Origin: Lachnospiraceae bacterium
GTDB taxonomy: Bacteria > Bacillota > Clostridia > Lachnospirales > Lachnospiraceae
Assembly (NCBI GenBank): GCA_017553695.1
Contig: JAFZKG010000112.1
Coordinates: 19,975 to 83,974, forward strand
Direction: 5' to 3'
DNA length: 64,000 nucleotides
Position 1 is the first letter of the stretch; the number at the start of each line of letters is the position of its first letter. Shown here piece after piece: positions 6,395 through 29,681 of this stretch. The translations under genes were made by a program, and so were the position numbers. The notes beneath the pieces were generated by a model that was given only the letters and a program-made list of their open reading frames with translations, was not told where the DNA came from and made no database searches.

Positions 6395-6496
6395 CAGCAG
6401 GGTTCCGTATCATAAAAAGGAAGCAAAGAAGCTAACCATTCATACAGGCGCACCCCCAAACGGTGCGCCTGAACAATAAAAAAACAGGAGGCAGAT

Positions 6497-7396: not shown

Positions 7397-7409
7397 CAGG
7401 AGTAATGAC

Positions 7410-8171
7410 ATGGTTAATGTATTGATTCACGGATGCAACGGAAGAATGGGCAACATGGTCAGTTCTCTTTCGGCAGATTATGAAGAGATCACGATCGTTG
7501 CCGGAGTTGACCGGCCGGATACGCCGGATGGCGGCAAATCCTATCCGATCTACGAAAGCCTGGATGCAGTCAAAGAAAAAGCAGATGTGATCATTGATAT
7601 TTCCACGGCATCTGCACTGGACGGACTCTTCCGGTATATCCGGGAGACAAAGACCGCAGCCGTCATCTGTACCACAGGTCTGAGCGAAGAGCAGGAAACA
7701 GAGATCTTAGAACTCTCCAAGGAAGTTCCAATCCTGCGCTCCGGGAATATGTCCATGGGGATCAACACGCTGCTCAAAGTGCTGGAGATGATCAGCGGTC
7801 CTCTTACCCGCGCCGGCTTTGATGTGGAGATCGTGGAGAAACATCATAAGACAAAAATCGACGCCCCAAGCGGAACGGCTGTCATGCTGGCAGATGCCGT
7901 GAAAGAAGGCACAGAAACGGCGTACGATTATGTATACGGCCGGAAAGAACGCCGGATGGTGCGTCCGAAAGAGGAGATTGGTATCAGTTCTGTCCGAGGT
8001 GGAACGATCGTCGGAGAGCATGAAGTGATCTTTGCCGGTACCGATGAGATCATTGAGATCAAGCACACTGCACTCTCAAGAGCAGTGTTTGCAAATGGCG
8101 CCCTGAATGCAGCGGCCTTTCTCGCAAAGCAGAAACCGGGCCTGTATTCCATGTCAGACGTCATCGGATGA
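7410..8171 (+). CDS. dapB: 4-hydroxy-tetrahydrodipicolinate reductase
   Basis: 253 aa. N-terminal 'GCNGRMG' Rossmann motif and 'EKHHKTKIDAPSGTA' DapB signature. Directly follows dapA. Confidence 0.93.
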   Translation: MVNVLIHGCNGRMGNMVSSLSADYEEITIVAGVDRPDTPDGGKSYPIYESLDAVKEKADVIIDISTASALDGLFRYIRETKTAAVICTTGLSEEQETEILELSKEVPILRSGNMSMGINTLLKVLEMISGPLTRAGFDVEIVEKHHKTKIDAPSGTAVMLADAVKEGTETAYDYVYGRKERRMVRPKEEIGISSVRGGTIVGEHEVIFAGTDEIIEIKHTALSRAVFANGALNAAAFLAKQKPGLYSMSDVIG

Positions 8172-10130: not shown

Positions 10131-10317
10131 ATCCGTGCTCCCGTTATCTTATGTTTTTTCAATTATAGCGTATGCGATGGCAGCCTTCAAACAGTTTATA
10201 AATAATAAGGTAAAAAGTCTGCGTTTTAGTAGTATTTGCCCTCTGAATATGCTATTCTAACATCAAATGCGCACATGCATTTTATTTCGTGATGCAAAAA
10301 AATAAAAAAGGAGAAAA

Positions 10318-12105
10318 ATGCAAGTCGTGAAAGAGTTGGAATACCCTTTTGACAGCGCCAATATCCTGAAAAAGAAAAAGTCCATCCGAAGACAGCTTCT
10401 GGAAGACGGAACCACCAGGATCCGCAAGAATATTGCGATCCTGGGCGGTTCGACGACGGCCAATGTGGCGCAGGTACTGGATCTGTTTCTGCTGCAGTAC
10501 GGGATCGAAGCATCCTTTTACGAAAGCGAATACAACAAGTATTATGAAGACGCCCTGTTCGGGAATCCGGATTTTGATGCGTTTGACGCGGATGTCATCT
10601 ATATCCACACGGGGATCCATAACGTCATAACTTTCCCGAAGATGCAGGATGACCGGGAAACGATCGATGCGAAATTGAATGCCGAGTTTGAACGTTTCCG
10701 TGCCGTGTGGGAGAAGTGTTTTGAAAAGAAAGGCTGCACGATCATCCAAAATAATTTTGAATATCCATCCTGGCGGCTTTTGGGAAATAAAGATGTGTCA
10801 GACATCCACGGAAGAGTCCGCTTTATCGCAAGGCTCAACCAGATGTTTGCGGATTACGCGGCAGAGACGGAAAACTTCTATATTCACGACGTGAACTATC
10901 TGAGCGCGAGATGCGGGATCGATACATGGTGCGATCCGTTCTACTGGAATATGTATAAATACTGTCCGGCAGTCCCATTGATCCCGGAACTATGTTTTTC
11001 TGTTGCAAACATCATCAAGTCGGTTTACGGGAAAAATAAAAAAGCGCTGGTACTGGATCTGGACAATACGCTGTGGGGCGGCATTGTCGGAGATGACGGA
11101 CCGGAAAATCTGGCGATCGGGCAGGAAAGCGGTCAGGGTGAAACTTATTACGAGTTTCAGGAATACCTGAAAGCGCAGAAGGATCTTGGCATTCTCCTGA
11201 ATATCGATTCAAAGAATGAATATGAGAACGCGATCGCAGGACTCAATGCCAAAGGCTCAGCACTAAGCCCGGAGGATTTCATCCTCATCAAAGCCAACTG
11301 GGATCCGAAAGACCGCAATCTCCTGGAAATCGCGAAGGAACTGAATCTGGGCGAAGACTCACTGGTCTTTGTGGATGATAATCCGGCGGAGCGGATGATC
11401 GTTTCCGAACAGGTCCCGGGTGTAGCCGTTCCGGAAATGGGAACACCGGAGACCTATATCCAAACCCTTGACCATTCCGGCTTCTTTGAAGTGACCAGCT
11501 TTTCTGCGGACGATCTGTCCCGGAATGATATGTACAAGGCAAACATCCAGCGGGAGCAGATGCAGTCGGCATTTGCGGACTATGAGGATTATCTGAAGAA
11601 TCTGGAGATGACAGCAGAGATCCTGCCATTTTCGAAAGAGGTGATCCCGAGGATCTCCCAGCTGACGAATAAGAGCAATCAGTTTAATCTGACAACGCTT
11701 CGGTGTTCCGTCGCTGACATAGAAGAAATGGCGGAGGATGAAAACTGGATCACGCTGTACGGGAAACTGGTGGATAAGTTCGGCGATAACGGTGTGGTCT
11801 CGGTGCTGGCAGCAGAGATTCGTCCGGATCATGCATACAGCCTTGGAAAAGAAGCGCATATCCGGCTGAATCTGATGAGCTGCCGTGTTCTGAAACGCGA
11901 CATGGAATTTGCCATGCTGGACGAACTGGTGCGAAAAGCAAAGGAAAAAGAGGTCACGACTCTGGTTGGCCACTATCTGCCGACGAAGAAGAATGGCATG
12001 GTGGCAGAACTCTATACTGACCTTGGCTTTCAGAAAGAAAACGATGTCTGGATCCTGGACGTCGCATCGTATCAGGATCAGTGTAAGGTGATAAAGATTA
12101 ATTAA
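10318..12105 (+). CDS. FkbH-like / HAD superfamily subfamily IIIC protein (candidate carrier-protein loader)
   Basis: 595 aa. 'LVLDLDNTLWGGIVGDDG' (HAD DxDxT), 'FVDDNPAER' and the C-terminal 'LMSCRVLKRDME' block typical of FkbH-like domains. RBS AAGGAG. Confidence 0.85.
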   Translation: MQVVKELEYPFDSANILKKKKSIRRQLLEDGTTRIRKNIAILGGSTTANVAQVLDLFLLQYGIEASFYESEYNKYYEDALFGNPDFDAFDADVIYIHTGIHNVITFPKMQDDRETIDAKLNAEFERFRAVWEKCFEKKGCTIIQNNFEYPSWRLLGNKDVSDIHGRVRFIARLNQMFADYAAETENFYIHDVNYLSARCGIDTWCDPFYWNMYKYCPAVPLIPELCFSVANIIKSVYGKNKKALVLDLDNTLWGGIVGDDGPENLAIGQESGQGETYYEFQEYLKAQKDLGILLNIDSKNEYENAIAGLNAKGSALSPEDFILIKANWDPKDRNLLEIAKELNLGEDSLVFVDDNPAERMIVSEQVPGVAVPEMGTPETYIQTLDHSGFFEVTSFSADDLSRNDMYKANIQREQMQSAFADYEDYLKNLEMTAEILPFSKEVIPRISQLTNKSNQFNLTTLRCSVADIEEMAEDENWITLYGKLVDKFGDNGVVSVLAAEIRPDHAYSLGKEAHIRLNLMSCRVLKRDMEFAMLDELVRKAKEKEVTTLVGHYLPTKKNGMVAELYTDLGFQKENDVWILDVASYQDQCKVIKIN

Positions 12106-12115
12106 AAGGAAAACC

Positions 12116-12370
12116 ATGATGGAAGAAAAGATTTATGAAACATTGAATGAAATATTCCGGGATGTCTTTGATGATGACGAGATCGTGGTGGATGCGAAGA
12201 CGAATTCCGATACGATCGAGGACTGGGACAGCCTGGAACATATCAATCTGGTGGTCGCCATTGAGAAGGCTTTCGGTCTGAAGTTCTCCATGGATGAGGT
12301 AACCGGAATGAAGGATGTGGGTGAAATGGTGGAGATCATCAAAGCCCGCGGAACGAAACTGGAGGATTAA
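12116..12370 (+). CDS. acyl carrier protein (classical ACP type)
   Basis: 84 aa, acidic. 'EDWDSLEHINLVVAIE' contains the DSL phosphopantetheine-attachment motif. Confidence 0.85.
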   Translation: MMEEKIYETLNEIFRDVFDDDEIVVDAKTNSDTIEDWDSLEHINLVVAIEKAFGLKFSMDEVTGMKDVGEMVEIIKARGTKLED

Positions 12371-12373
12371 CAA

Positions 12374-12598
12374 ATGAGAGAAAAAGTACTGGCGATCCTG
12401 AAAGAGGTCAATGAAGAGATCCCGGAATATGAAGGCGAAGGCCTTCTGGAGGATGGGATCATTGCATCGCTGGATGTGATCGAGATCGTCTCCGCACTGG
12501 AAGATGAATTCGGCATTGTCATTGCGGCAAGGAACATTACGAAAGAAAACTTCGCGACAGTGGACAGCATCTGCGCTCTGGTGGAAAGCCTGCAGTAA
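12374..12598 (+). CDS. DltC-like small carrier protein
   Basis: 74 aa. 'LEDGIIASLDVIEIVSALEDEFGI' resembles the DltC 'EEGLLDSFGTVELL' region, with Ser at the equivalent position. Lies directly upstream of an MBOAT gene, as in dlt operons. Confidence 0.7.
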   Translation: MREKVLAILKEVNEEIPEYEGEGLLEDGIIASLDVIEIVSALEDEFGIVIAARNITKENFATVDSICALVESLQ

Positions 12599-12601
12599 GA
12601 G

Positions 12602-14128
12602 TTGCTTATGACACTGGTCTCCGTTTCCTTCCTGATCTTCCTGGCGGCGGCTGTCCTGGTCTATTACCTGACACCGCAAAAAGGGCAGTGGATCGTATTG
12701 CTTCTGGCTAGCCTTGTTTTTTACTGGCTCTGTTCCAAAGGCTTTCTGATCTTTCTGCTGCTTTTCGCAGGGATCATATATGTCTTTGCAAGATCCTTTG
12801 AGACCGGGAAGAAAAAGCTTTTGGTCCTTCTGGAGGTTGCGATCCTGATCGTGCTCCTGATCGTCCTGAAGTATGCCGGATGGTTTGGGGACGGTTTCGT
12901 CCGTTTCCTTTCGACGATCAGTTTTCAGAAGCCGCTTTCATTTGTGGCACCGCTCGGGATCTCGTATGTGCTCCTGACAGGAATCGGATACTCAGTGGAC
13001 GTGTTCCGGGGAACCGTCACGGCGGAAAAGAACTTCCTGAAAGTATTGAGCTTTCTGTCGTTCTTCCCAGCCATCACGCAGGGACCGATCAACCGTTTTT
13101 CGGATCTGTCCGGTCAACTGATGGAAGGGCACCGTTTCTCTTATGAAGCGCTTGTTTTCGGAATCCAGCGGATGCTGTGGGGTTTCGTCAAAAAGCTGGT
13201 GATTGCCGGAAGGCTGAATGTGGTCATGCTGGAGCTGACCGGTTCCTGGCAGGGAAGCAAATATTCCGGCGCGTATGTGGTCCTTACCGTTGCCATCTGT
13301 TCGCTCAACATCTTTATGGATTTTTCGGGATGCATGGATATCGTGATCGGCGCGGCGGAGATCTTCGGGATCCGTCTGCCGGAGAATTTCGATCATCCGT
13401 ATCTGGCAAGATCCATGCCGGAGTTTTGGAGAAAGTGGCATATCACGCTTGGCGAATGGCTGCGTGATTACGTGATGTTCAGTTTCACGATGTCTGCGCC
13501 CGCCAAAAAAATGAACAAAAGCCTGAAGGGAAAGGTTGGCAGGAAAACAGCGGCTGCCCTGGTCAGTATTATCGGTGTGCTGTTCGTATGGCTGGTGTTT
13601 GGTCTCTGGCATGGGATCTCAGGCACCTTCCTGCTGGCAGCGGCATACTATGCGCTGCTCATTATCGGCGGCATCGTGATCGAAGAACCGGTCAAAAGAT
13701 TCCGTTCAAAATATCCGCAGTTTACGGAATCAAAAGGATTCCAGATATTCCGTACGGTGCGGACGTATTTCCTGGGAATCCCGGGCGCGTATCTGATGCT
13801 GATGCCGCAGGTCAAAAGCGGACTGCAATTCCTGGCGACAATTTTTACCCGCCCGGCCGCGCAGTTTGTGGTGAAGATCACGGAAGGCGAAGGTGCAGGG
13901 ACCTTTCTTCTGGGATTGGATATTTATGATTTTACAGTGCTGATCCTTTCGCTCATCCTGTGGCTCGTTGTGACAACGCTCCACAGAAAGAAGGATGTAC
14001 GGATCCGGCTTTCCAATATACATATTGTTCCGCGATGGGCCATCCTGCTGGCGGTGGTGATCGCCGTCGTGCTGTTTGGTTTTTACGGGGATCTGAATGC
14101 GGGAAGTTTTATTTATCAGGGTTACTAA
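12602..14128 (+). CDS. MBOAT family membrane O-acyltransferase (module 1, DltB/AlgI-like)
   Basis: 508 aa, polytopic. 'FFPAITQGPINRF' and the His block 'FWRKWHITLGEWLRDY'. The start may be TTG 12602 or ATG 12608. Confidence 0.9.
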   Translation: MLMTLVSVSFLIFLAAAVLVYYLTPQKGQWIVLLLASLVFYWLCSKGFLIFLLLFAGIIYVFARSFETGKKKLLVLLEVAILIVLLIVLKYAGWFGDGFVRFLSTISFQKPLSFVAPLGISYVLLTGIGYSVDVFRGTVTAEKNFLKVLSFLSFFPAITQGPINRFSDLSGQLMEGHRFSYEALVFGIQRMLWGFVKKLVIAGRLNVVMLELTGSWQGSKYSGAYVVLTVAICSLNIFMDFSGCMDIVIGAAEIFGIRLPENFDHPYLARSMPEFWRKWHITLGEWLRDYVMFSFTMSAPAKKMNKSLKGKVGRKTAAALVSIIGVLFVWLVFGLWHGISGTFLLAAAYYALLIIGGIVIEEPVKRFRSKYPQFTESKGFQIFRTVRTYFLGIPGAYLMLMPQVKSGLQFLATIFTRPAAQFVVKITEGEGAGTFLLGLDIYDFTVLILSLILWLVVTTLHRKKDVRIRLSNIHIVPRWAILLAVVIAVVLFGFYGDLNAGSFIYQGY

Positions 14129-15175
14129 ATGAAAAAACTGGGAAAGGCAGTACTGTTTTGTCTGATCCTTGCAGTGCTGCTGGCATTCTTAAACCGAATA
14201 CTGATGCCCGACACCACATTTCAGGCAGACACTGAAAAGATCGGGGATGAAGTCGATTACATGGTCGTCGGCACGAGTAATGTGTTTTACTGCGTGAACC
14301 CGACGGTCATCTGGAATGAGGCAGGTTATACGGGATATGATCTGTCGCTGGAGCAGGCACCGTTGATCATCACCTATTACCAGTTGAAGGCAGAACTGAA
14401 GAAAGTGAAGCCAGAGACGGTATTCCTGGATTGTGCCGCGTTTGAATACAATTACGGCATAGCGTCCATGAATCAGCTTGCGCTTGATAAGATGCCGCTC
14501 AGTATGGATAAACTCCGGCTGATCAAAGCGCTTGGAGAGGATGACAAAGACCACCACATCGCGGAAGAGAACAAATACAGCAAGATCAATTATCTACTTC
14601 CGCTGCATAAGTTTCATGACCGGTGGAAAGAGATCTTCGGGGGAACGCTGAAGAGCCGGTATCATGAAAAATATGAAAATACATTCGCGGGATATGTGGC
14701 CACAAAGGATCATTTTGTCTACCAGAATCCGCATAAGTGGCTGCCAACCATGGAAGAGTTTGGCGCTTCCTTTGAGACCAATATCACGGATCTGAACCGC
14801 GAATACTTTGAAAAGATACAGGCACTTTGCGCGGAGCATGACGTGGAGCTCATTCTGATCAAAACGCCTTCCAAAGGATGGCTGCTGGAGACGCATAAAA
14901 ACATGAAGCAGTTCGCCGAAGAGGAAGGGCTGGAATTTCTGGATATGAATGAAGAGACAGTGATCGAGGCACTTGCGATCGATGAACAGGTCGATTTCTG
15001 TGACTCCTCCTCACACTTTAACATATACGGTACTGAGAAGATCAGCCGGTATCTGGCTGAGTGGATGCAGACGCATCAGGACTACGCGGATAAGCGGGTA
15101 CAGGGGACCGGAACGAATGCTTACTGGAACTTTCTGTATGCCGATTATCTGGCATTTAAGAATGCGGAAGATTAG
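14129..15175 (+). CDS. DltD-like / SGNH-fold extracytoplasmic partner protein (module 1)
   Basis: 348 aa. N-terminal TM anchor 'AVLFCLILAVLLAFL'. 'MVVGTSNVF' (block I Ser) and 'FCDSSHFNIYG' (DxxH block). The ATG directly follows the MBOAT stop. Confidence 0.65.
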   Translation: MKKLGKAVLFCLILAVLLAFLNRILMPDTTFQADTEKIGDEVDYMVVGTSNVFYCVNPTVIWNEAGYTGYDLSLEQAPLIITYYQLKAELKKVKPETVFLDCAAFEYNYGIASMNQLALDKMPLSMDKLRLIKALGEDDKDHHIAEENKYSKINYLLPLHKFHDRWKEIFGGTLKSRYHEKYENTFAGYVATKDHFVYQNPHKWLPTMEEFGASFETNITDLNREYFEKIQALCAEHDVELILIKTPSKGWLLETHKNMKQFAEEEGLEFLDMNEETVIEALAIDEQVDFCDSSSHFNIYGTEKISRYLAEWMQTHQDYADKRVQGTGTNAYWNFLYADYLAFKNAED

Positions 15176-15178
15176 ACT

Positions 15179-16654
15179 ATGGTATTTTCGAGTAACATCT
15201 TTCTATTTGTCTTTCTTCCTGTGACCTTACTGTTTTACTTTAACCCGTTTACGAAGAAATGTAAGGACGGCGGACGGACATTCAAGAATATTGTTCTGCT
15301 GATCGCAAGCCTCGTTTTTTACGGATGGGGCGAGCCGCGGTTTGTCTTCATCATGATGGCCTCGATCGTCCTGAACTACCTGATTGGAAGGGGACTCGGG
15401 AAATACGAAGCGAAGAGTATTCGCAGATGGCTGCTGGCCGCACTCCTGGTTTTGAACATCGGCCTTCTGTTCGTATTCAAGTATCTGGGTTTCGTGGCAG
15501 GGATATTCGGAGGAGCGATCTCCATCGCGCTTCCGCTCGGGATCTCGTTTTATACCTTCCAGATCCTGTCTTATGGACTGGATGTGTATTTTAACAAAGA
15601 TAAGGTGCAGAAAAACATTCTGCTCCTGGGCTTATATATTTCCATGTTTCCGCAGCTGGTCGCGGGACCTATCGTGCGGTATGGCGATGTTTCAGAAGAA
15701 CTGCTGAACAGGAAAGAAACGTCCGCAGATATCACCTACGGCGTGCGACGCTTTGTATATGGATTGGGAAAGAAAGTCCTTCTGGCGAACTTCCTGGCCA
15801 TCATCGCAGATTACGCGTTTTTAAGCCCGGGCACCAATTCTGTGATGACCAGCTGGCTGGGGACCATCTGCTATACGCTGCAGATCTACTTTGATTTTTC
15901 AGGGTATTCCGATATGGCCATTGGATTAGGACGTATCTTCGGATTCCATTTTCCGGAGAACTTCGATTATCCATATGTGTCGCTGTCATTTACGGAATAC
16001 TGGCGCAGATGGCATATGACACTGGGCAGCTGGATGCGGGACTATCTGTTCTATCCGCTGCAGAAGAGCGAAGGATTTGTCCATCTGGGCGGATGGGCAA
16101 GAGGCATCCTTGGAAAAAAGAAAGGAAAATATGTTCCGGCGATCTTATCGCTCCTGGTCCTGTGGCTGGCGATGGGTTTCTGGCACGGCGCAAACTGGAA
16201 CTTTGTTCTTTGGGGCCTTTTGTTCTTCGTACTGATGAGCTTTGAGAGCCTGTCCGGGATGGGGAAAAAGGCACTTCGGACGACAGGTGAAAAAGGCTTT
16301 CAGGCAAAAAAGATCGCCTATCACATTTATGTGGTCTTTTTCCTGCTGATTGCCTACGTGTTGTTCCGTGCAGACAGTCTGCCGCTTGCGTTCCGCTATA
16401 TCGGCAACATGTTTGGCGGCACCACAAACTCCTTCGTGGATCAAGACTTTTGGAAGTATTTGAAAAACATCCGGTTTCTGCTTCCGGCAGCGATCCTTCT
16501 GTGCACACCATTTGCCAGATGGATCAGCGGGAAGATAAAGAAACCGTTGGTAAGAGATATCGGAAGGGGTGTGGCCATCCTGGCCATCTTTGTCCTTTCC
16601 GTCCTGTCCATCGTGACAGAGTTTTACAACCCGTTTATCTATTTTAATTTTTAG
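15179..16654 (+). CDS. MBOAT family membrane O-acyltransferase (module 2, AlgI-type)
   Basis: 491 aa. 'FPQLVAGPIVRYGDV' and 'YWRRWHMTLGSWMRDYLFYPL'. Confidence 0.9.
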   Translation: MVFSSNIFLFVFLPVTLLFYFNPFTKKCKDGGRTFKNIVLLIASLVFYGWGEPRFVFIMMASIVLNYLIGRGLGKYEAKSIRRWLLAALLVLNIGLLFVFKYLGFVAGIFGGAISIALPLGISFYTFQILSYGLDVYFNKDKVQKNILLLGLYISMFPQLVAGPIVRYGDVSEELLNRKETSADITYGVRRFVYGLGKKVLLANFLAIIADYAFLSPGTNSVMTSWLGTICYTLQIYFDFSGYSDMAIGLGRIFGFHFPENFDYPYVSLSFTEYWRRWHMTLGSWMRDYLFYPLQKSEGFVHLGGWARGILGKKKGKYVPAILSLLVLWLAMGFWHGANWNFVLWGLLFFVLMSFESLSGMGKKALRTTGEKGFQAKKIAYHIYVVFFLLIAYVLFRADSLPLAFRYIGNMFGGTTNSFVDQDFWKYLKNIRFLLPAAILLCTPFARWISGKIKKPLVRDIGRGVAILAIFVLSVLSIVTEFYNPFIYFNF

Positions 16655-16656
16655 GA

Positions 16657-17958
16657 ATGGAACAAGAGGGAAAAGTTGAAAAGATCATAACGCGGATCGT
16701 CATCGGCATTCTGTTTGCCTTTCTGCTTTCGATCATCGTAGTCGCGATCCTGATCAAAGCAGGCAGAACAGAATTATTCCGCATGGATCACAGCATTGAG
16801 ACGAAAGTCTATGAGATCGGCAAAGAGGATAACGTCCTCCGAAAAGTCTCCAAAGGCTACAGCAATGCGGTGTATGCGGCAAAGAATTATACCGATGCCT
16901 ATTCCAATGATCTGCTGCTGGGACGGCGGAAGATCGTGGAGACAGAGGTGCGCTATAAGAACCTGATCGGGTTTAAGATTTACGCACCGGGCGAATACAA
17001 CAGCCTTCTGTACCTGGAGGATGGGTATCTGGCCAGTGCCAATCCGAAGGAGAGCCCGGAAGACATCCAGAAGATTGCGACCAAGATCAAAGGCCTTTCC
17101 GATACGGCCAAAGAAGCCGGCGCCACGTTCTTTTATATGCAGACGCCGGGCAACATTGATAAGTACGGGGATCCGGAGATCAACCAGGTGCAGGATTTTG
17201 CCAACTACAATGCCGACCTTCTGGTGGAAGATTTAAAGGCATATGGCATCGACTGCCTGGATATCCGGGACAACATGCATGTGGCATTTGATGACTACCG
17301 TTCCCTTTTCTTCCGGACAGATCATCACTGGAGGCAGCCGGTCGCACTTTGGGCGACGAATGAACTGTGTGCATATATGCAGGAGCAGTATGGATTTACG
17401 TATGATGCTTCCTATTATGACCCGGATCAATATGAGGTCGAGGTGCTGCCGGAGCATTATCTGGGATCACTTGGCAGAAAGGCGACCCTGGCTGAAACAA
17501 TGCCGGATGATTTTGAATTGATGCACCCGAAATTTGAAACGGACATGGAACTGTGTCTGGATAAAAAGGGACCATTCGCGGAAAAATATGAGCAGGAAGG
17601 AAGCTGGGAAATCCTTTATGACCGCGAGGAAATGGAATACGATGATATTTACTGGAGAGAGTGTTATCTGGCACTGCTGGCTTTCTACGGAACCGGGAAA
17701 GCGTCTGTGAAAAACGTTCTGGCAGATAATGAAACAACAATCGCGATCGTGGGAGATTCTTTATGCATTCCGGTCACAGCTTTTCTTGCCCTGAATGCGA
17801 AAAAGGTCGTCCTTATCGATCCGCGGTATTTTGACGGCAGTATTAAGGATTATATATTAAAGACAAAACCGGATTTCGTGATCAGTTCCTATTCGACCAC
17901 GATCATCCAGGATTATTATCCGATCTTTGATTTTGATAAACAGCATGAAAAGCAATAA
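16657..17958 (+). CDS. DHHW-motif (AlgJ/AlgX-like) extracytoplasmic acyltransferase partner (module 2)
   Basis: 433 aa. N-terminal TM anchor, 'FFRTDHHWRQP' DHHW motif and 'IVGDSLCIP'. Confidence 0.75.
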   Translation: MEQEGKVEKIITRIVIGILFAFLLSIIVVAILIKAGRTELFRMDHSIETKVYEIGKEDNVLRKVSKGYSNAVYAAKNYTDAYSNDLLLGRRKIVETEVRYKNLIGFKIYAPGEYNSLLYLEDGYLASANPKESPEDIQKIATKIKGLSDTAKEAGATFFYMQTPGNIDKYGDPEINQVQDFANYNADLLVEDLKAYGIDCLDIRDNMHVAFDDYRSLFFRTDHHWRQPVALWATNELCAYMQEQYGFTYDASYYDPDQYEVEVLPEHYLGSLGRKATLAETMPDDFELMHPKFETDMELCLDKKGPFAEKYEQEGSWEILYDREEMEYDDIYWRECYLALLAFYGTGKASVKNVLADNETTIAIVGDSLCIPVTAFLALNAKKVVLIDPRYFDGSIKDYILKTKPDFVISSYSTTIIQDYYPIFDFDKQHEKQ

Positions 17959-19989: not shown

Positions 19990-19998
19990 GGGAACGAA

Positions 19999-20436
19999 AT
20001 GAACAGATATACCTTTGATGAGATCGAAGTCGGGATGGAGGACGGATTTGACGTTGCCGTGACCGAAGCAATGATGGAGACCTTCCGCGATCTGACGGGC
20101 GATGTGAATCCGCTGCACTGCGATGATGCCTTTGCGAAAGAAAAGGGATTTGATGGGAAAGTGGCCTATGGCATGCTGACCGCCTCCTTCCTTTCCACGA
20201 TGGCAGGTGTATATCTGCCGGGGGAGAATTCCCTGATCCAAAGTGTGGAGGTGAAGTTTTCCAAACCGGTCTTTCCGGGAGATGTGATCGCATTCCGCGG
20301 AAAAGTGAGCGAGAAAAATGATACCTTTCAGTTTCTGACGCTCAAGGTCACGGGAACAGTTACAGAGTGCGAAAATAAAGAGCGCTGCGGAACAAAAGTT
20401 CTGAAAGCAGTGATGCAGATAGGAGTCATGAAATGA
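19999..20436 (+). CDS. MaoC-like (R)-hydratase/dehydratase hot-dog protein
   Basis: 145 aa. 'FRDLTGDVNPLHCDDAFAKEKGFDGKVAYGML' matches the MaoC dehydratase signature. Confidence 0.85.
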   Translation: MNRYTFDEIEVGMEDGFDVAVTEAMMETFRDLTGDVNPLHCDDAFAKEKGFDGKVAYGMLTASFLSTMAGVYLPGENSLIQSVEVKFSKPVFPGDVIAFRGKVSEKNDTFQFLTLKVTGTVTECENKERCGTKVLKAVMQIGVMK

Positions 20437-21167
20437 AACGGCTATTGATCACGGCGGCAGATTCCGCCTTTGGCATGAAACTGATCGAGCGGTATTGTGA
20501 AAATGGATTGCAGGACATCGAATGGATCTATGGGACCTGTTATGATTGTTATGATATGGTGGAGGATCTGATTCAGCAGTATCCGGAACTGGAACAGAAA
20601 CTGACCCTGCAGCAGGTGGATATGCGGAAGGAAGCAGAGATCGAGGCATTCCTTATGGATCTGAATCAACGGGAAGTGCCGACGGATTTCGTGCATCTTC
20701 CGGCACCTAAGGCGATTCCGGAACGCTTTGCAAAACTGGACTGGACAGCAGATTTCCGGCCGCATCTCGAGATCTCATTAAAATCAGCCGTGCTGATCCT
20801 GCAGGCTATCCTGCCAAAGATGGCGAAGGCCAAAAAGGGGAACGTGGTCCTGATGGCTTCTTACTATGGAACCGAAGAAGGCACACCGAATTTCCTGGCT
20901 CCGTATGTGGTGGCTAAGAGTGCGATTCTGGGGCTGATGCGTGCACTGAATAAAGAATATTCACCGAAAGGCATTCGTATCAACGCTGTGGCACCGGATC
21001 TGACAGACACGAAATTTTTAGACGATATGCCAGACCTCATCAAGGAACAGGCGGCATATAACAATCCGAAGGGACGGATCCTGACGGCGGACGAAGTGAT
21101 AGATGCTATGATGCCGCTTCTGGATGATACGAAAAGCGGCAGTGGAGAGACGGTGATCGTGAAATGA
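20433..21167 (+). CDS. short-chain dehydrogenase/reductase (FabG-like) with degenerate glycine motif
   Basis: 244 aa. Catalytic 'APYVVAKSA' (YxxxK) and 'IRINAVAPD'. The N-terminal 'ITAADSAFG' replaces the usual TGxxxGxG. Confidence 0.8.
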   Translation: MKRLLITAADSAFGMKLIERYCENGLQDIEWIYGTCYDCYDMVEDLIQQYPELEQKLTLQQVDMRKEAEIEAFLMDLNQREVPTDFVHLPAPKAIPERFAKLDWTADFRPHLEISLKSAVLILQAILPKMAKAKKGNVVLMASYYGTEEGTPNFLAPYVVAKSAILGLMRALNKEYSPKGIRINAVAPDLTDTKFLDDMPDLIKEQAAYNNPKGRILTADEVIDAMMPLLDDTKSGSGETVIVK

Positions 21168-22947: not shown

Positions 22948-22956
22948 CACCTTTTT

Positions 22957-23961
22957 ATGAAGGCCTTGAAAACGACCGGAAAAATCATACTGATCCTGTT
23001 GCCGGTGATCCTCGTCTGGATCTATCTGGCCGTATTCCCTGTCAACTATATGGACGGGGAGTATTCCTATTATCAGGAGGCAAAAGATTACCGGCGGGGA
23101 AAGACTTCGCAGGAAAAAGCGGATGTGCTGATCCTGGGCGATTCCCGGGCAAAGTCTGCTTTTCTTCCGGAACTGCTGGATGAACTGGGCGGGTCCGAAA
23201 ACTGTGTTTCGCTTGCACAGGGTGGATCGACTTCTGTAGAAGCCTATTATGCGCTGAAGGAATACATGGAAAATATGGGTGTGCCGGACAAGGTGGTCCT
23301 TTCCGTAAGTGCCTATCATTTTACCAGTTTCGACGGGTTCTGGACCCGGACCGTTTATTTTGACACGATCACATATTCGGACGCGATGGACGTGATCCGC
23401 GCGGTGAAAAAGAATGGAGAAAAGCAGGCTTTGAAAGACGCCGGTGGCGACAGCGTCTTTACGCTTCTGGAATATAAGATCCAGTCACCGACCAAATACA
23501 TGACGCCGCTTGTCAACTCTTTTTCGGAAGACCGCAGGCAGATCAATGAGGATGCATACCGGGAAATGGAAGAACACAAAGGATTCAAGACCTTTGTGAG
23601 CTGGTGGCCGGTCAGCGGGGAATATGACATGACTGAGTTTGTCATGCTCAAGACCCTCGATGAGTATTACCGGAAGATTCTGGATCTTTGCAATGAATAT
23701 GATATTGAGCTTTATTCCATGAACACGCCGCTGATCGAAACGACATTCGAAGAGTGCCGGAAGATCTGGGAGCCGTTCATGGGTTATTTTAAAGATTTGA
23801 AAAACGATTACCCGGAAGATGTTTATCCGGGTATCCATATTGAGACGACGATTGAAAGCTATGACGAAAAATACTTTGATGATGCCGACCACCTGAACGA
23901 GGAAGGCGCCAGAGTCTATACGAAATGGTTTTACGAGACATATCTGGAGGCGGCATCATGA
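22957..23961 (+). CDS. DltD-like / SGNH-fold extracytoplasmic partner protein (module 3)
   Basis: 334 aa. TM anchor 'IILILLPVILVWIYLAVF'. 'VLILGDSRAKSAF' (GDS block I) and 'DDADHLNEEG' (DxxH block V). Confidence 0.7.
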   Translation: MKALKTTGKIILILLPVILVWIYLAVFPVNYMDGEYSYYQEAKDYRRGKTSQEKADVLILGDSRAKSAFLPELLDELGGSENCVSLAQGGSTSVEAYYALKEYMENMGVPDKVVLSVSAYHFTSFDGFWTRTVYFDTITYSDAMDVIRAVKKNGEKQALKDAGGDSVFTLLEYKIQSPTKYMTPLVNSFSEDRRQINEDAYREMEEHKGFKTFVSWWPVSGEYDMTEFVMLKTLDEYYRKILDLCNEYDIELYSMNTPLIETTFEECRKIWEPFMGYFKDLKNDYPEDVYPGIHIETTIESYDEKYFDDADHLNEEGARVYTKWFYETYLEAAS

Positions 23962-25445
23962 GTTTCTTAAGTCTGATCTTTTTCATTTTTCTGGCCGTCT
24001 GTGTCGTGGTGTATTATCTGGTGCCGAAGAAGGGACAGTGGATCGTCCTTCTATGTGCAAGCATCGTCTTTTACGGCTATGCGACACGCATGGGACTGCT
24101 TGCCCTGCTGGCAGAAACACTGATCATATATCTGCTTGTCCGTTGGATGGAGCAGAAGCCGGAAAATGCGAAAAAGATCCTGGTACTCATCTGCGTTCTG
24201 GCGGCAGTTGCCATGCTGCTTCTGCTGAAATACCTGCCGGAAAGTCTGGGCGGAAAGAGCGTCTTTTCCGGATGGTTTTTCAAAGACCTGCTGATGTCAC
24301 TGGGAATCTCCTACTACACACTGATGATCATCAGTTACGCAGTAGACGTGTACCGGGAACAGATCCCGGCAGAGACCAATTACGCCAGGTTGGTACTGTT
24401 TGCGTTTTATTTTCCGTCCATTACGCAGGGTCCGATCAACCGATATGGGGACCTTTCACCGCAGTTCTATGAAGTGCACATGTTTGACGGGGACGCATTT
24501 TTCAAAGGACTTTTCCGTTTTGCATGGGGCTGCTTTAAGAAACTGGTAATCGCTAACCGTACCGCCGCTTTGATCACGGCTGTGTATGGAAGTCAGAAAT
24601 CGACCTGTGTGATCATCCTTCTGGCGTTGTTATTGACTATGCTGCAGCTGTATACTGACTTTTCCGGTTGCGCGGACATGGCGATTGGCGTCAGCCAGGT
24701 ATTGGGAATCCACCTTCCGGAAAATTTCCGTCAGCCGTATTTTTCCCGAAGTATCGAGGAATATTGGCGCAGATGGCACATTACATTAGGCGCCTGGCTG
24801 AAAGATTATATTTATTATCCGATCTCCGTGAGCGGTGCATCCAAGTGGTTTATTAAAAAAGGCGCGGACCGGCAGGCAAAAAAACGAAGGACAAAACTGG
24901 TATCCATTGTTGCACTGATGATCCTCTGGATCATCATGGGAATCTGGCATGGCAGTGGTATGAAGTTTTTTATCATGGGTGTGTATTACGGCGTGGTCTT
25001 CATTATCACAATGCTGCTGGCGCCAATCGCAGAGCGTTTTGACAAAAAACATCCGAAACTTGTGGCATCACCGCTGTATAAGTTCTGGCAGCAGGTGCGT
25101 ACGGTCCTATTACTGTGGCTGGCGCCGATCCTTTTCAGCGTAAAGGATCTTAGCCAGTTGAAGACCCTGGTCAGCAAAGTGTTTACCGGTTTCCGCTTTG
25201 GCACGCTGTTTGACGGTACGCTGCTGAAGTTTGACCTGGACGCTTTGCAACTGATCCTGCTGGCAGTCGGATTTCTATCATTGCTAGTGGTATCTGTCAT
25301 CGAGTACAATAAAAAAGAAACAATCAGCGAACTGGTGAGAGGACAGAAATGGTTCGTGCAGATTCTTGCCTGGTGGTATGTGATCATCCTGATCCTTCTT
25401 TCGCTGAATATTGCAAATACGGAATTTATATATGCACAGTTTTAA
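23958..25445 (+). CDS. MBOAT family membrane O-acyltransferase (module 3, close paralogue of module 1)
   Basis: Start taken at ATG 23958 (MSFLSLIFF..), which gives an ATGA overlap with the upstream stop. 'YFPSITQGPINRYGD' and 'YWRRWHITLGAWLKDY'. The N-terminus 'VVYYLVPKKGQWIVLLCASIVFY' nearly matches module 1 'LVYYLTPQKGQWIVLLLASLVFY'. Confidence 0.9.
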   Translation: MSFLSLIFFIFLAVCVVVYYLVPKKGQWIVLLCASIVFYGYATRMGLLALLAETLIIYLLVRWMEQKPENAKKILVLICVLAAVAMLLLLKYLPESLGGKSVFSGWFFKDLLMSLGISYYTLMIISYAVDVYREQIPAETNYARLVLFAFYFPSITQGPINRYGDLSPQFYEVHMFDGDAFFKGLFRFAWGCFKKLVIANRTAALITAVYGSQKSTCVIILLALLLTMLQLYTDFSGCADMAIGVSQVLGIHLPENFRQPYFSRSIEEYWRRWHITLGAWLKDYIYYPISVSGASKWFIKKGADRQAKKRRTKLVSIVALMILWIIMGIWHGSGMKFFIMGVYYGVVFIITMLLAPIAERFDKKHPKLVASPLYKFWQQVRTVLLLWLAPILFSVKDLSQLKTLVSKVFTGFRFGTLFDGTLLKFDLDALQLILLAVGFLSLLVVSVIEYNKKETISELVRGQKWFVQILAWWYVIILILLSLNIANTEFIYAQF

Positions 25446-26148: not shown

Positions 26149-27684
26149 ATGGAATTCAAGCGTTTGACGGAACTGTTGGATAAGGCTGTCACGGATGTGC
26201 CGGAAAAGATTGGTTTCGTTGATGAAGACGGTACAAAGACTTATCGGCAAATGCAGGAGGAATCTCTGAAGATCGCGAAGGCAATCGTGAGGACGACCGG
26301 CGAAGATCCAGCAGCCATTGGAGAAAAAGATCCGCAGCCGGTCGCAACGCTGATCGAGGCAGGCAATGATCTTGCTGCCTGCATGCATGGAATCCTTTAT
26401 GCCGGAGATTATTATTCCTGCATTGACGAGACTATGCCGAATGAGCGGATCGAGAAGATTTTTGAAACGCTTGAGCCGGTGATCCTTTTGACCAATCGCG
26501 AAACCGAAGCAAAGGCCCGGGAGATTCATTTTGACGGCTATGTGATGGTTTATGAGGACATCATGGAAAAAGAGGAAGAAGCATTTGAACTCCCGATGAT
26601 CGTAGAAGAAGAAGTCTCGCATAAACTGGCGAGCGTGGTATTCACTTCCGGGTCCACCGGAAATCCGAAGGGTGTCATGCAGGGACATAACGGGATCCTG
26701 TATTGTTCCATCGCCAACCGGGATGATGTGCAGGTCATTTTCTCGGATCATGTCGGAAATCAATCCCCGATGTATTATGTCATGGGTGTCCTGAATCTGT
26801 TTTTCTCCATTGCGGCGGAAGCGACCTGCTATTTCATGCCGAAAGAACTGTTCAGCCAACCGGGTGAGCTCGTGAAATATCTGGCCGAAAACCAGATTTC
26901 TGTCATGGATTGGGTCGCAAGCGCTGTTACAGTGATCTCCCGTTTTTCCGCCTGGGAAGGCTATGAGGAAGAGTTGAACAATTGCATTAGACAGATCGTT
27001 TTTGCCGGAGACGTTGCGTCTACGAAACTGATCAATAAAATGAAAAAAGCTGTTCCGGGTCCTCGCTATTCACAAGGGTACGGAGCGTCGGAATTTTTCT
27101 ATACGTTCCTGTATCCGATGGAGCGCGAGATTGCGGATGATGAAAGGGTCCCTCTGGGATATCCGGCAGAGTTTGTCACGGCATATATCATCAAAGACGA
27201 TGGAACAGAGGCTCAGGTCGGCGAAGAAGGACAGCTGTGTCTGGCCGGACCAGGCATCGGGCTTGGCTATCTGAAAGACGAGGCATCCACCGCTGAAAAA
27301 TATCAGGATAATCCTCTGAAGCCGGGAGAGACGATCTACTGTACCGGTGATATCGTGGAAAAGAATGAGTATGGCGAAGTCATCTTCAAGAGCCGCCGGG
27401 ATTTCATGATCAAGCATATGGGACACCGTGTGGAACTTGGCGAGATCGAACTGGCGGCCTGCGCGCTGGATGACCGGATGCAGTGTGCCTGCATCTTCAA
27501 TAAAGATACAGAGCATATCATCATGTGCTACGTGGGGGCCTTGGAAGAGAAAGAACTGCGTGAGAAACTGAAAGAAAAAGTACCGCGTCATATGGTACCG
27601 AACCGGTTCGTGCGGATGGACAACCTGCCGCTGAATCAGAATAACAAAGTAGACAGAAAGAAGCTGGAAGAGCTGTATTTCTGA
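26149..27684 (+). CDS. stand-alone adenylation enzyme (DltA-like, ANL superfamily)
   Basis: 511 aa. A3 'VVFTSGSTGNPKGV', A7 'YCTGDIV', A8 'RRDFMIKHMGHRVELGEIE' and A10 'NNKVDRKKL'. Confidence 0.88.
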   Translation: MEFKRLTELLDKAVTDVPEKIGFVDEDGTKTYRQMQEESLKIAKAIVRTTGEDPAAIGEKDPQPVATLIEAGNDLAACMHGILYAGDYYSCIDETMPNERIEKIFETLEPVILLTNRETEAKAREIHFDGYVMVYEDIMEKEEEAFELPMIVEEEVSHKLASVVFTSGSTGNPKGVMQGHNGILYCSIANRDDVQVIFSDHVGNQSPMYYVMGVLNLFFSIAAEATCYFMPKELFSQPGELVKYLAENQISVMDWVASAVTVISRFSAWEGYEEELNNCIRQIVFAGDVASTKLINKMKKAVPGPRYSQGYGASEFFYTFLYPMEREIADDERVPLGYPAEFVTAYIIKDDGTEAQVGEEGQLCLAGPGIGLGYLKDEASTAEKYQDNPLKPGETIYCTGDIVEKNEYGEVIFKSRRDFMIKHMGHRVELGEIELAACALDDRMQCACIFNKDTEHIIMCYVGALEEKELREKLKEKVPRHMVPNRFVRMDNLPLNQNNKVDRKKLEELYF

Positions 27685-27699
27685 TAAGAGTATTTCATT

Positions 27700-28548
27700 A
27701 TGGGTCTTCGCATCACATCCATGCTGATAATTGAATATGCGCGCAATCACTACGACGCTGACCTGTCGGAAACACTGACGCTGGGCCGTCAGTTCCGCGC
27801 GTTCTCCCGCAGGGAGTTCGCAAAATATTTGCCTTCTTACGCCAAGGTGATCGCGCCGGATAAACTCTCGAAGGACTTTCACAGTCCTTATGCGGAAGAA
27901 GTGTTTGCGGATATGTATGGATCCCGGCCAAAGAGCCTGGACGGCTTTGCACATGAAGAACCGGACATCCTGCATGATCTGAACAAGCCGGTCCCGGATG
28001 AACTGACAGAGCGTTTTTCCTGTCTGATCGACGGCGGCACGATGGAGCATGTATTCCATGTGCCGATGCTGCTGCATAACTGTTTTTCCATGCTGAAGGT
28101 GGGCGGGCTTTACATTTCCATGGTGCCGACGAATAACTTCAATGGCCATGGCCTATATCAATTCTCACCGGATTTCTTCTACAGCACGTTTTCGGCGCAA
28201 AATGGGATGGAACTCCTGGACGTCTTCATTGTGAAATTTTCCGCGAAGGATAAAGTTTGGAAGATCGCCCAGTCTCCAAAGGAAGCCGGCGGGCGGGTGC
28301 AGTTTGACGTGAATACGCAGACTGAGATCTATGTGATCGCGCGGAAGACGGGGAAGACGCCGGAGGAGATCACAGCGCAGCAGACGGATTATGAAGAAGG
28401 CTGGTATGAAGAGCAGAAGAGCATTACGAATACCGCAAAGCGCGATGCCTTGATCGAGAAGGCCCCTCGCAAGCTCGTCTATCTTTTCCGCCAGTTCCTC
28501 TATGAACCGCTGAAACGGCGGAAAAATATCACAAAGATCAAGCTATGA
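27700..28548 (+). CDS. class I SAM-dependent methyltransferase-like protein
   Basis: 282 aa. 'FSCLIDGGTMEHVFH' and 'MLKVGGLYISMVP' resemble methyltransferase post-I/II motifs. Motif I is weak. Confidence 0.55.
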   Translation: MGLRITSMLIIEYARNHYDADLSETLTLGRQFRAFSRREFAKYLPSYAKVIAPDKLSKDFHSPYAEEVFADMYGSRPKSLDGFAHEEPDILHDLNKPVPDELTERFSCLIDGGTMEHVFHVPMLLHNCFSMLKVGGLYISMVPTNNFNGHGLYQFSPDFFYSTFSAQNGMELLDVFIVKFSAKDKVWKIAQSPKEAGGRVQFDVNTQTEIYVIARKTGKTPEEITAQQTDYEEGWYEEQKSITNTAKRDALIEKAPRKLVYLFRQFLYEPLKRRKNITKIKL

Positions 28549-29585: not shown

Positions 29586-29681
29586 TCAGGAATTGCCTAT
29601 ATCGGGCGGCCTGTGTTATCTTGTTTATGATAAATAGATGAGCATTGCTTGATAGCAGACAATAAGGAAAGGAGCAAAAAA

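Follow-up and report, generated by a model that had tools for sequence, protein, structure and literature searches.

An FkbH-like loader, two carrier proteins and three MBOAT acyltransferases in a Lachnospiraceae gene cluster: a candidate carrier-dependent system for cell-wall acylation

This work concerns a packed run of genes in a 64,000-nucleotide stretch of DNA from a Lachnospiraceae bacterium (NCBI GenBank assembly GCA_017553695.1, contig JAFZKG010000112.1, positions 19,975 to 83,974 of the forward strand). We call the whole stretch the window, and positions below refer to it unless another source is named. The run opens with a gene for an FkbH-like enzyme, followed by genes for two small carrier proteins, named here CP1 and CP2, and it contains three genes for membrane-bound O-acyltransferases (MBOATs). 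We slightly favor the view that these genes encode an MBOAT-SGNH system which depends on carrier proteins, esterifies a cell-wall glycopolymer outside the cytoplasm, and is supplied by two cytoplasmic loading branches.

The gene run and its FkbH-like loader

The window is a purine-skewed chromosome segment of the Clostridia type, with about 49% GC and nearly all genes on the + strand. The run begins on this strand at position 10318 with the genes for the FkbH-like enzyme, CP1, CP2, MBOAT1, a protein of 348 amino acids (aa), MBOAT2, and an AlgX-like protein. It continues with genes for an FAD oxidoreductase, a family 2 glycosyltransferase (GT2), a MaoC-type enzyme, a short-chain dehydrogenase/reductase (SDR), an epimerase-like protein, a TIM-barrel protein, a DUF1574-like protein, MBOAT3, and a second GT2, and then with genes for an adenylating enzyme, a 282-aa protein, and an AT3 acyltransferase. 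From 10318 to 29585 the genes lie on one strand and are densely packed, with every intergenic gap too small for a terminator. A scan of positions 9900-29800 for promoters and terminators was uninformative: promoter matches did not exceed the expectation from shuffled sequence, and all matches fell within coding sequence. Ribosome-binding sites are present upstream of the FkbH-like, CP1, and CP2 genes alike, and independent metagenome contigs carry identical proteins, the FkbH-like one included, with identical neighboring gene calls.

The first gene (10318..12105, + strand) encodes a long-form FkbH-like loader of 595 aa, composed of an FkbH_N domain, a HAD-IIIC phosphatase domain (DLDNT), and a C-terminal acyl-Cys domain (LMSC522RV); its sequence includes LVLDLDNTLWGG and LMSCRVLKRDME. 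The 'FkbH domain' profile TIGR01686 spans residues 241-574, which corresponds to profile positions 3-322 of 323, with a score of 266.6 bits against a cut-off of 146.65. The E-value of this match is 2.8e-79, and a chance match is therefore no issue. Additionally, Pfam FkbH_N (PF21211) covers residues 39-234 with 32.1 bits, a HAD-IIIC profile is matched as well, and the PDB entry 3slr (B. fragilis BF1531) matches residues 21-397.

For alignment, two cluster-defined homologues were retrieved from plasmid records. The neighborhood of the first consists of genes for a hybrid nonribosomal peptide synthetase/polyketide synthase (NRPS/PKS), a flavin oxidoreductase, an ABC exporter, the HAD-IIIC protein, an NRPS, a hydrolase, and a further NRPS. 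We take this gene order to be that of the zwittermicin (zma) cluster, with the HAD-IIIC gene at the ZmaN position. The second homologue is a Streptomyces FkbH flanked by genes for an acyl carrier protein (ACP), an acyl-CoA dehydrogenase, and a 3-hydroxyacyl-CoA dehydrogenase, which is the classical methoxymalonyl-ACP set. Residues D247, D249, T251, S298, K331, and D353, together with the block L-M-S-C522-R-V, are invariant between the window protein and both homologues, and the same HAD residues and LMSC522RV block are invariant in 10 close relatives. C522 is presumably the exact acyl-accepting residue, given its conservation and the work on OzmB.

An earlier note on this DNA, made from the letters alone, had described a 595-aa FkbH-like reading frame with a HAD motif and a C-terminal block, and all of these were found where it had placed them. 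It had also proposed to align the HAD aspartates and the acyl-accepting Cys with known FkbH proteins; they proved intact against the zwittermicin-cluster and Streptomyces homologues. With the TIGR01686 score and the invariant catalytic residues, the 595-aa protein is, as judged from its sequence, a genuine FkbH-family member.

A 670-aa Streptomyces FkbH-like protein aligns with residues 36-573 of the window protein at 30% identity (E 2e-67), which argues that the two share a three-domain long form, namely that of the tetronate/butenolide polyketide branch. This Streptomyces protein sits in an operon with the order PKS-KASIII-FkbH-ACP-phosphopantetheinyl transferase, the tetronate/butenolide "glycerate utilisation" arrangement.

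In the OzmB/FkbH mechanism, 1,3-bisphosphoglycerate is converted to an acyl-S-enzyme, which is dephosphorylated before the glyceryl unit passes to an ACP (PMC9057759; PMC7489565); the S-enzyme intermediate of OzmB is described in PMC9057759. By analogy, the window enzyme would react with 1,3-bisphosphoglycerate to form (phospho)glyceryl-S-Cys522, its HAD domain would strip the phosphate, and the glyceryl group would be moved to holo-CP1. A C3 glyceryl unit on one of the carriers, as the earlier note suggested, is thus a reasonable default, since a dedicated ACP follows FkbH.

Two carrier proteins and two candidate loaders

The CP1 gene (12116..12370, + strand) encodes an 84-aa ACP (DWDS39L) that contains 'DWDSLEH'. 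Its ATG at 12116 follows the FkbH stop at 12105 after a 10-nt gap, and its top PDB match is 2lml, a putative ACP (E 1.2e-16). CP2 (12374..12598, + strand) is a 74-aa carrier of the type II peptidyl carrier protein (PCP) or DltC-like kind (IAS32LD), which contains IASLDVIEIVSALEDEF and starts with an ATG at 12374, 3 nt after the end of CP1 at 12370. Both carriers pass the Pfam PP-binding gathering score of 20.8 bits (CP1, 23.1; CP2, 23.3). The earlier note had reported an 84-aa ACP with a DSL motif after 10 nt and a 74-aa carrier after a further 3 nt, exactly as found. The similarity between CP1 and CP2 is marginal and extends over 25 residues. They are the only two carrier genes in the whole window, against three MBOAT genes.

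The label 'DltC-type' goes too far for CP2 and fits it in a loose sense only. DltC is indeed its best NCBIfam profile, but the scores remain below the cut-offs (NF003464, 39.5 vs 68; TIGR01688, 24.6 vs 52.35). Its best PDB relatives are type II PCPs such as PltL, with DltC entries behind at E 0.008-0.03, and its candidate loading ligase, described below, is without the alpha-amino-binding Asp.

That ligase is a stand-alone adenylating enzyme of 511 aa (26149..27684, + strand), encoded 13.5 kb downstream of CP2, which has the architecture of an NRPS adenylation domain (A-domain) or DltA. It scores 168.9 bits with PF00501, and its further matches are below cut-off: 245.6 bits with TIGR01733, and 199 (NF003417) and 190 bits with the DltA profiles, whose cut-offs are 476 and 560. 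Its length and coverage are DltA-like, and its PDB relatives are LgrA, TycA/GrsA, and DltA.

To place these genes in a wider context, 80 loci around FkbH relatives (54-70% identity) were taken from species-representative genomes, and their open reading frames (ORFs) were scored with the window proteins; individual loci are cited below by L numbers. The collection comprises 185,579 species and holds at least 594 stretches that encode an FkbH relative, mostly from Lachnospiraceae of gut and rumen, with some from Oscillospiraceae and others. Counts of proximity were restricted to the 71 loci with at least 6 kb downstream of FkbH. A CP1-type gene occurs within 6 kb of FkbH in 66 of these and immediately downstream of it in 57, and a CP2-type carrier within 6 kb in 2.

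Across all 80 loci, CP2-type carriers were found in three (L001, L002, and L069), each accompanied by an adenylating enzyme that is encoded either within the locus or elsewhere on its contig. In L002, the adenylating gene directly follows MBOAT3; in L069, the order is MBOAT-CP2-adenylating enzyme; and for L001, a ligase of 49% identity (P0140) is taken as lying on the same contig. CP2 further shares 47% identity (E 2e-17) with the 76-aa carrier of L087, a Lachnospiraceae locus without FkbH whose order is A-domain, formyltransferase, 76-aa carrier, and MBOAT. The confinement of CP2 to loci with an adenylating enzyme and its identity with the L087 carrier point to two loaders for two carriers, in which FkbH would serve CP1 and the enzyme at 26149-27684 would serve CP2.

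The earlier note had treated both carriers as possible clients of FkbH. In this alternative, FkbH alone would load glyceryl or glycerate on either adjacent carrier, and the two would supply separate MBOAT channels with an identical C3 unit. The contiguity of FkbH, CP1, and CP2, with gaps of 10 nt and 3 nt, and the retention of this order in L001 and L002, the two closest relatives, are in its favor. We nevertheless hold it to be very doubtful: the other 77 FkbH loci have no CP2-type carrier, such carriers occur only with an adenylating enzyme, CP2 resembles the L087 carrier from an FkbH-less A-domain/MBOAT locus, and the same operon encodes a second loader while CP1 and CP2 are not meaningfully similar. 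The client relationship with FkbH thus fits CP1, which follows FkbH in 66 of 71 loci, and not CP2, which tracks the adenylating enzyme.

In the two-loader reading, the adenylating enzyme would activate a carboxylic acid and load it on CP2, as DltA loads DltC. In both LgrA alignments, Val211 of the window enzyme takes the place of the Asp of the A4 "FD" motif (Asp235 in GrsA numbering), the residue that binds the alpha-amino group. The window A4 motif reads 'MYYVMG', where relatives of 33-36% identity have 'FYFDNS' or 'FYFDLS' and one has 'FYFSMS'. FYFD prevails among the relatives at 33-38% identity, some of which carry the annotation amino-acid adenylation protein or DltA. At the position of the A4 Asp, close relatives have V, A, or G. 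They form a clade of about 20 clusters, beyond which identity falls sharply from 49% to 38%. The A10 lysine is retained in the window enzyme. Because the amino-binding Asp is replaced by Val211, the substrate is probably not an alpha-amino acid, and the branch may be described as Dlt-like. Canonical D-alanylation was considered for CP2 and rejected, as this Asp is missing and the DltA and DltC scores are below threshold.

Directly after the adenylating enzyme lies a gene for a 282-aa protein (27700..28548, + strand) with no assigned family, for which searches of Pfam and NCBIfam gave no match. L085 and L086 have a gene of equivalent size (281-283 aa) behind the A-domain gene, and the context there is DUF1574-like protein, MBOAT3, GT2, ligase, 282-aa-type protein, and AT3. 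The idea that the 282-aa protein is the counterpart of the L087 formyltransferase, which has the same position, was rejected, as the two show no similarity. Its segment 'DGGTMEHV ... LKVGGLY' recalls class I methyltransferase motifs, and a clear SAM-binding glycine loop was not seen.

The L087 locus is of interest in its own right. Positions 8001-12248 of L087 encode an A-domain with Asp235, a 284-aa formyltransferase-like protein, the 76-aa carrier, and a 524-aa MBOAT, with no FkbH. This could be another undescribed Dlt-like variant, possibly one for delivery of an N-formyl-aminoacyl group.

Proposed processing of the C3 unit, and the MBOATs with their partners

The MaoC-type (R)-hydratase/dehydratase (19999..20436, + strand; PF01575, 84 bits) has a perfect hydratase-2 motif, F-RD-L-T-G-D-V-N-P-L-H. 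The SDR ketoreductase (20433..21167, + strand; YxxxK) scores 88-93 bits with adh_short and adh_short_C2, and its FabG-like NCBIfam matches are below cut-off. MaoC lies near FkbH in 25 of the 71 loci, and MaoC together with SDR in 18. Where present, MaoC is usually directly beside CP1, with CP1-MaoC-SDR-MBOAT as the typical order and FkbH-CP1-MaoC-SDR-MBOAT-SGNH as a frequent one; L011, L017, L018, L031, and L058 have the latter without CP2 or ligase. The pair can be separated from the genes that surround it in the window: L002 has MaoC-SDR without the FAD/GT2/epimerase/TIM block, and in L076 the FAD, GT2, and epimerase genes of this block occur in the absence of MaoC-SDR. Since they are separable from this block and adjoin CP1 in relatives, MaoC and SDR are best assigned, on the basis of gene order, to the FkbH/CP1 branch.

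Within this branch, MaoC would eliminate the 3-OH of glyceryl-CP1 to give enol-pyruvoyl/pyruvoyl-CP1, and SDR would reduce pyruvoyl-CP1 to lactyl-CP1; relatives without MaoC and SDR would deliver glyceryl. There is a precedent for such a sequence in polyketide biosynthesis, for which we take BryA, with dehydratase (DH), ketoreductase (KR), FkbH, and ACP in the order DH-KR-FkbH-ACP, as the bryostatin example of a lactate loading module. The FkbH-DH-KR-ACP modules of trans-AT PKSs have the same activities, lead from 1,3-bisphosphoglycerate to a lactyl-S-carrier, and are recorded as giving D-lactyl-ACP (PMC7901079). They differ from the window in that the window proteins are free-standing, with a single hot-dog MaoC and a FabG-like SDR that are compared by activity, and in that the window product would leave as an ester rather than be extended by a ketosynthase.

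Alternatively, FkbH and CP1 may give unmodified glyceryl (2,3-dihydroxypropanoyl) esters, with MaoC and SDR acting on, for example, a CP2-bound acid or a sugar nucleotide. In line with this, 46 of the 71 related loci have FkbH-CP1-MBOAT without MaoC, and the window MaoC and SDR genes stand amid the FAD, GT2, epimerase, and TIM-barrel genes, away from CP1. We consider this rather unlikely, as the two genes usually lie between CP1 and MBOAT in loci from which CP2 and the ligase are absent (L003, L008, L011, L017, L018, L031, and L058), and as L002 keeps them without the surrounding block. The assignment of MaoC and SDR to the CP1 branch is therefore retained below.

Three MBOATs follow in the run, and all of them exceed the PF03062 cut-off. 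MBOAT1 (12602..14128, + strand; PF03062, 53.8 bits) is DltB-like and ends in FIYQGY. It scores 150 bits with TIGR04091 (DltB), under the cut-off of 375, its sole PDB relatives are the DltB entries 6bug and 8jem, and its WHITL and GLWHG segments align with the DltB His motifs. MBOAT2 (15179..16654, + strand; PF03062, 67 bits) is of a second type and ends in FIYFNF. MBOAT3 (23925..25445, + strand; PF03062, 56.9 bits) ends in FIYAQF and scores 168.8 bits with TIGR04091, again below cut-off; across the window MBOATs, this profile gives 142-169 bits. MBOAT1 and MBOAT3 are paralogues with 38% identity, and MBOAT2 is 30-33% identical to each.

Each MBOAT has a partner of its own, encoded next to it and fitted with a membrane anchor at the N-terminus. 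That of MBOAT1 is a 348-aa membrane-anchored protein (14129..15175, + strand), identified as DltD-like SGNH by AlphaFold2 (AF2) modeling and Foldseek. No match was found for it in Pfam or NCBIfam, and a search of PDB sequences with its family profile gave weak SGNH matches (best E 0.0065) and did not find DltD. The AF2 model (pLDDT 84, pTM 0.85) has DltD 6pfx as its top Foldseek match (E 3.2e-5), followed by GDSL/SGNH enzymes and PatB. G48, S50, D292, and H296 are conserved, and homologues follow MBOAT in many FkbH loci. The modeled fold is thus DltD-like or SGNH-like, at a low TM-score.

The partner of MBOAT2 is a 433-aa AlgX/AlgJ-like membrane-anchored protein (16657..17958, + strand), which matches PF16822 ALGX with 33.1 bits (cut-off 26.5) and has a DHHW motif at residue 222; this pair is conserved in L001, L002, L022, L085, and L086. 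The gene of the MBOAT3 partner precedes that of MBOAT3 and encodes a 334-aa DUF1574-like SGNH protein (22957..23961, + strand), recognized by weak sequence similarity: PF07611 gives 26.7 bits, slightly under the cut-off of 29.1, and the GDS and DxxH motifs (GDS ... DADH) are present. It is a distant paralogue of the 348-aa partner (23% identity, E 5e-7 to 1e-6), and its adjacency to MBOAT3 is kept in L001, L002, L085, and L086.

All three window MBOATs have FxYxx[F/Y] as their exact C-terminal hexapeptide. Among MBOATs from FkbH loci, 77 of 88 have this C-terminus, and 85 of 88 have F-I/V-Y. The Tyr of this acyl-shuttle motif is acylated in DltX and PatA before transfer to the SGNH partner (PMC12148441). 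The earlier note had not mentioned these motifs, nor the second loader at 26149-27684 or the MaoC/SDR genes at 19999-21167.

It had remarked that there are two carriers for three MBOATs. The count is right, but it poses no paradox, given that every MBOAT has its own partner, MBOAT1 and MBOAT3 are paralogues, and the examined stretch of L001 has two MBOATs, without MBOAT1 and its partner. That the two carriers feed different MBOAT channels, as was also proposed, is plausible. A rough neighbor-joining (NJ) tree has a large clade of MBOATs encoded next to FkbH/CP1 or next to an A-domain gene. MBOAT1 and MBOAT3 are sister paralogue lineages within it, close to the A-domain-linked MBOATs of L069 and L087. 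MBOAT2 belongs to a different clade, together with the MBOATs directly after FkbH in L007, L009, L010, and L029. Assignment of carriers to MBOAT1 and MBOAT3 by phylogeny was dropped, as the tree was indecisive, and synteny alone was used. MBOAT3 adjoins the A-domain gene in L002, and one GT2 gene lies between them in the window, L085, and L086. Synteny suggests a pairing of CP1 with MBOAT1, possibly also with MBOAT2, and of CP2 with MBOAT3.

A division in which the MBOAT2-AlgX pair is a carrier-independent acetyltransferase and MBOAT1 and MBOAT3 are carrier-dependent was rejected as a firm claim, because the MBOAT2 clade has FkbH-adjacent members and an MBOAT from Sinorhizobium meliloti best matches MBOAT2 (by phmmer). 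The latter belongs to a four-gene module on pSymB of S. meliloti 1021 (L089:2889-8088; NC_003078.1, about 631-636 kb, reverse strand), which consists of a 577-aa MBOAT ending in FLYQGF, a 409-aa partner, a CP1-like ACP (QWDSL), and an FkbH-like gene. With this Gram-negative version, the design reaches beyond Firmicutes. The FkbH gene of strain 1021 is present as two overlapping ORFs (6026-7414 and 7273-8088), and tblastn gives two pieces. This copy may be frameshifted, as most of the other listed S. meliloti pSymB records have FkbH in one piece.

The carriers may also have nothing to do with the MBOATs. In that case, the MBOAT pairs would be O-acetyltransferases like PatA/PatB or AlgI/AlgJ, with acetyl-CoA as donor. 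FkbH, the carriers, MaoC, SDR, and the adenylating enzyme would serve to make a small molecule or an acyl substituent in the cytoplasm; one example is the N-acylation of an amino sugar, which has been proposed for glycan loci with FkbH-domain genes. According to PMC12148441, a carrier protein is used in the Dlt pathway only, and the other MBOAT-SGNH pathways are carrier-free with acyl-CoA donors; the fused FxYxxF motif of all three window MBOATs is typical of acyl-CoA users. The FkbH-domain gene cj1302 of C. jejuni lies in a flagellar glycosylation locus independently of any MBOAT, and the operon itself has an extra acyltransferase, AT3. This reading, and with it the N-acylation example, seems to us quite unlikely in view of the linkage. 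Any MBOAT lies within 8 kb of FkbH in 66 of the 71 loci, the adjacency of FkbH, ACP, and MBOAT recurs across these Clostridia loci and in the S. meliloti pSymB module, and the adjacency of A-domain, carrier, and MBOAT recurs independently in L087 and L069. Moreover, the cluster was found to have no ketosynthase or condensation gene, nor one for a soluble N-acyltransferase, that could make use of the acyl-carriers.

A proposed carrier-dependent route, its relatives, and its meaning

In the carrier-dependent reading that we favor, the acyl-carrier would dock on the MBOAT, and the conserved His would move the acyl group to the Tyr of FxYxx[F/Y] at the outer face. The Ser of the partner, a DltD-like SGNH protein for MBOAT1 and MBOAT3 and the AlgX-like protein for MBOAT2, would then take the acyl group and esterify a cell-wall polysaccharide made by the downstream glycosyltransferase and LCP genes. 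For this gut-type bacterium, the outcome would probably be wall sugar polymers that bear C3 hydroxy-acid esters and a second acyl group.

Several points weigh against this reading. We infer from sequence what FkbH uses as substrate, that MaoC and SDR act on a 2,3-dihydroxyacyl thioester, and that an acyl-carrier is the MBOAT donor. Among the examined window genes we noted no phosphopantetheinyl transferase. Elsewhere, MBOATs whose shuttle motif is fused are known as users of acyl-CoA (PMC12148441), and for this reason any of the three could simply be an acetyltransferase. The Foldseek TM-scores of the 348-aa model to DltD are low (0.40-0.43), and the NJ tree does not resolve which carrier belongs to MBOAT1 and which to MBOAT3. 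In the window, about 7.6 kb separates MaoC and SDR from CP1, and the two genes occur in just a quarter to a third of related loci, so that the default product of the family may be glyceryl and not lactyl. In L007, a locus of Gallintestinimicrobium propionicum, and in L009, L010, and L029, FkbH is followed directly by an MBOAT of the MBOAT2 clade, and a CP1-type carrier was not detected nearby; in this subtype, either the ACP is encoded elsewhere or the system works without one. Finally, the close relative L001 has both carriers, yet only MBOAT2 and MBOAT3 within its examined stretch.

Among known systems, the Dlt pathway is alike in its cytoplasmic loader and small phosphopantetheinyl carrier, its DltB-like MBOAT, its membrane-anchored DltD-like SGNH protein, and its FxYxxF Tyr shuttle. 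Unlike in Dlt, the loader of CP1 is an FkbH-type HAD/acyl-Cys enzyme and not an adenylating one, the second loader is DltA-like in architecture but without the alpha-amino-binding Asp, and the shuttle motif is fused to the MBOAT C-terminus rather than carried by the DltX microprotein. The window proteins also miss every Dlt equivalog cut-off. Because these thresholds are missed, the motif is fused and not on DltX, and no D-alanine ligase serves as loader, the window system is, by its sequence features, not a Dlt member.

PatA/PatB, AlgI/AlgJ(X), and WssH/WssI likewise combine MBOATs that have two extra helices and end in FxYxxF with an SGNH or AlgX-like partner. These systems use acetyl-CoA and are carrier-free (PMC12148441), whereas carriers and loaders are co-conserved with MBOAT in the loci described here.

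The polyketide enzymes FkbH, OzmB, and ZmaN, together with the tetronate-type long forms, share with the window protein the HAD-IIIC and acyl-Cys domains, the catalytic residues, the adjoining ACP, and the N-terminal domain. In contrast to their clusters, that of the window has no ketosynthase, FabH-like, or PKS/NRPS genes, nor genes for FkbI/K/G-type acyl-CoA or 3-hydroxyacyl-CoA dehydrogenases or O-methyltransferases, and MBOAT and cell-wall genes lie downstream instead. No similarity was detected between CP1 and the partner ACP of the Streptomyces KASIII-FkbH-ACP operon.

Searches for FkbH together with MBOAT, DltB, lactyl, or capsular polysaccharide, and for HAD-IIIC, gave no description of such a module in the open-access literature, which was the sole text covered. 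The nearest mention is that of cj1302, an uncharacterized FkbH-domain gene in the C. jejuni flagellar glycosylation locus.

The surroundings of the run are those of a cell-wall locus. Its 5' side has valS, a class A penicillin-binding protein (PBP) gene, dapA, dapB, and a divergent gene for a DUF6077 membrane protein. After AT3 come genes for sugar-nucleotide enzymes, glycosyltransferases, large unannotated membrane proteins, and an LCP ligase. The genes of cell-wall context thus include glycosyltransferases, CapD-like, UDP-GlcNAc 2-epimerase, LCP ligase, and PBP1 genes.

Some of the neighboring genes recur in related loci. The DUF6077 protein (8172-10130, - strand) is a multi-pass membrane protein of 652 aa, divergent from the FkbH operon. 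DUF6077-like genes are found beside FkbH loci L001, L007, L009, L010, and L029; in L009 (8-5501), the MBOAT is followed by a 388-aa membrane-anchored protein and a DUF6077-like protein, and a DUF6077-like ORF lies downstream in L007, L010, and L029 too. This protein might be a component that handles glycopolymers, perhaps GT-C-like, or be related to the acceptor.

The genes at 17927-19989 and 21164-22947 encode a DAO-type FAD oxidoreductase, a PgfS/GtrB-like GT2 that has membrane helices at its C-terminus, an epimerase-like protein, and a TIM barrel of the xylose-isomerase type. They are kept together, independently of MaoC-SDR, in L001, L085, and L086, and the first three were detected in L076. 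This block looks like a module for synthesis and modification of a polyprenyl-phosphate sugar for extracytoplasmic glycosylation. The AT3 (Acyl_transf_3) acyltransferase (28545-29585, + strand) is the final gene of the acylation block and brings the operon to four membrane acyltransferases from two superfamilies, three of them MBOATs. On either side of the polysaccharide cluster lie genes for secreted-looking proteins with Cu_amine_oxidN1-type domains (29649-31157 and 50300-52012, both + strand); the pair comprises an alpha/beta hydrolase and a papain-family protease whose C-terminal domain is lectin-like.

Wall polymers carry esters such as D-alanyl and acetyl groups, and these esters control charge and autolysis as well as phage adsorption, recognition by the immune system, and resistance to lysozyme and antimicrobial peptides. 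Beside the carrier-fed Dlt pathway and the acyl-CoA-fed systems, this locus and its many relatives suggest a third design, in which a polyketide-type FkbH loader and its ACP feed MBOATs with a fused Tyr shuttle. The arrangement is widespread in genomes and apparently undescribed. It is tempting to propose, as an idea that we entertain almost as readily as we doubt it, that FkbH-ACP-MBOAT-SGNH modules form an unrecognized and widespread class of cell-envelope acylation. In such a class, a C3 unit from glycolysis would be held as an ACP thioester, optionally converted to lactyl, and exported by a Tyr shuttle to give glyceroyl or lactyl wall esters.

If this holds, carrier-protein donors would not be unique to the Dlt pathway, and the operon of the window would pair an FkbH-ACP system with a second branch that is Dlt-like but not for amino acids. 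The adenylating branch without the amino-binding Asp hints at more "Dlt-like" acylations with acids other than amino acids. The system would also be a defined set of about six proteins that could be reconstituted. The walls of abundant gut Lachnospiraceae would probably be decorated with hydroxy-acid esters derived from glycerate, which, if true, would give major commensals a chemically new kind of wall modification and would tie wall decoration directly to glycolytic flux.

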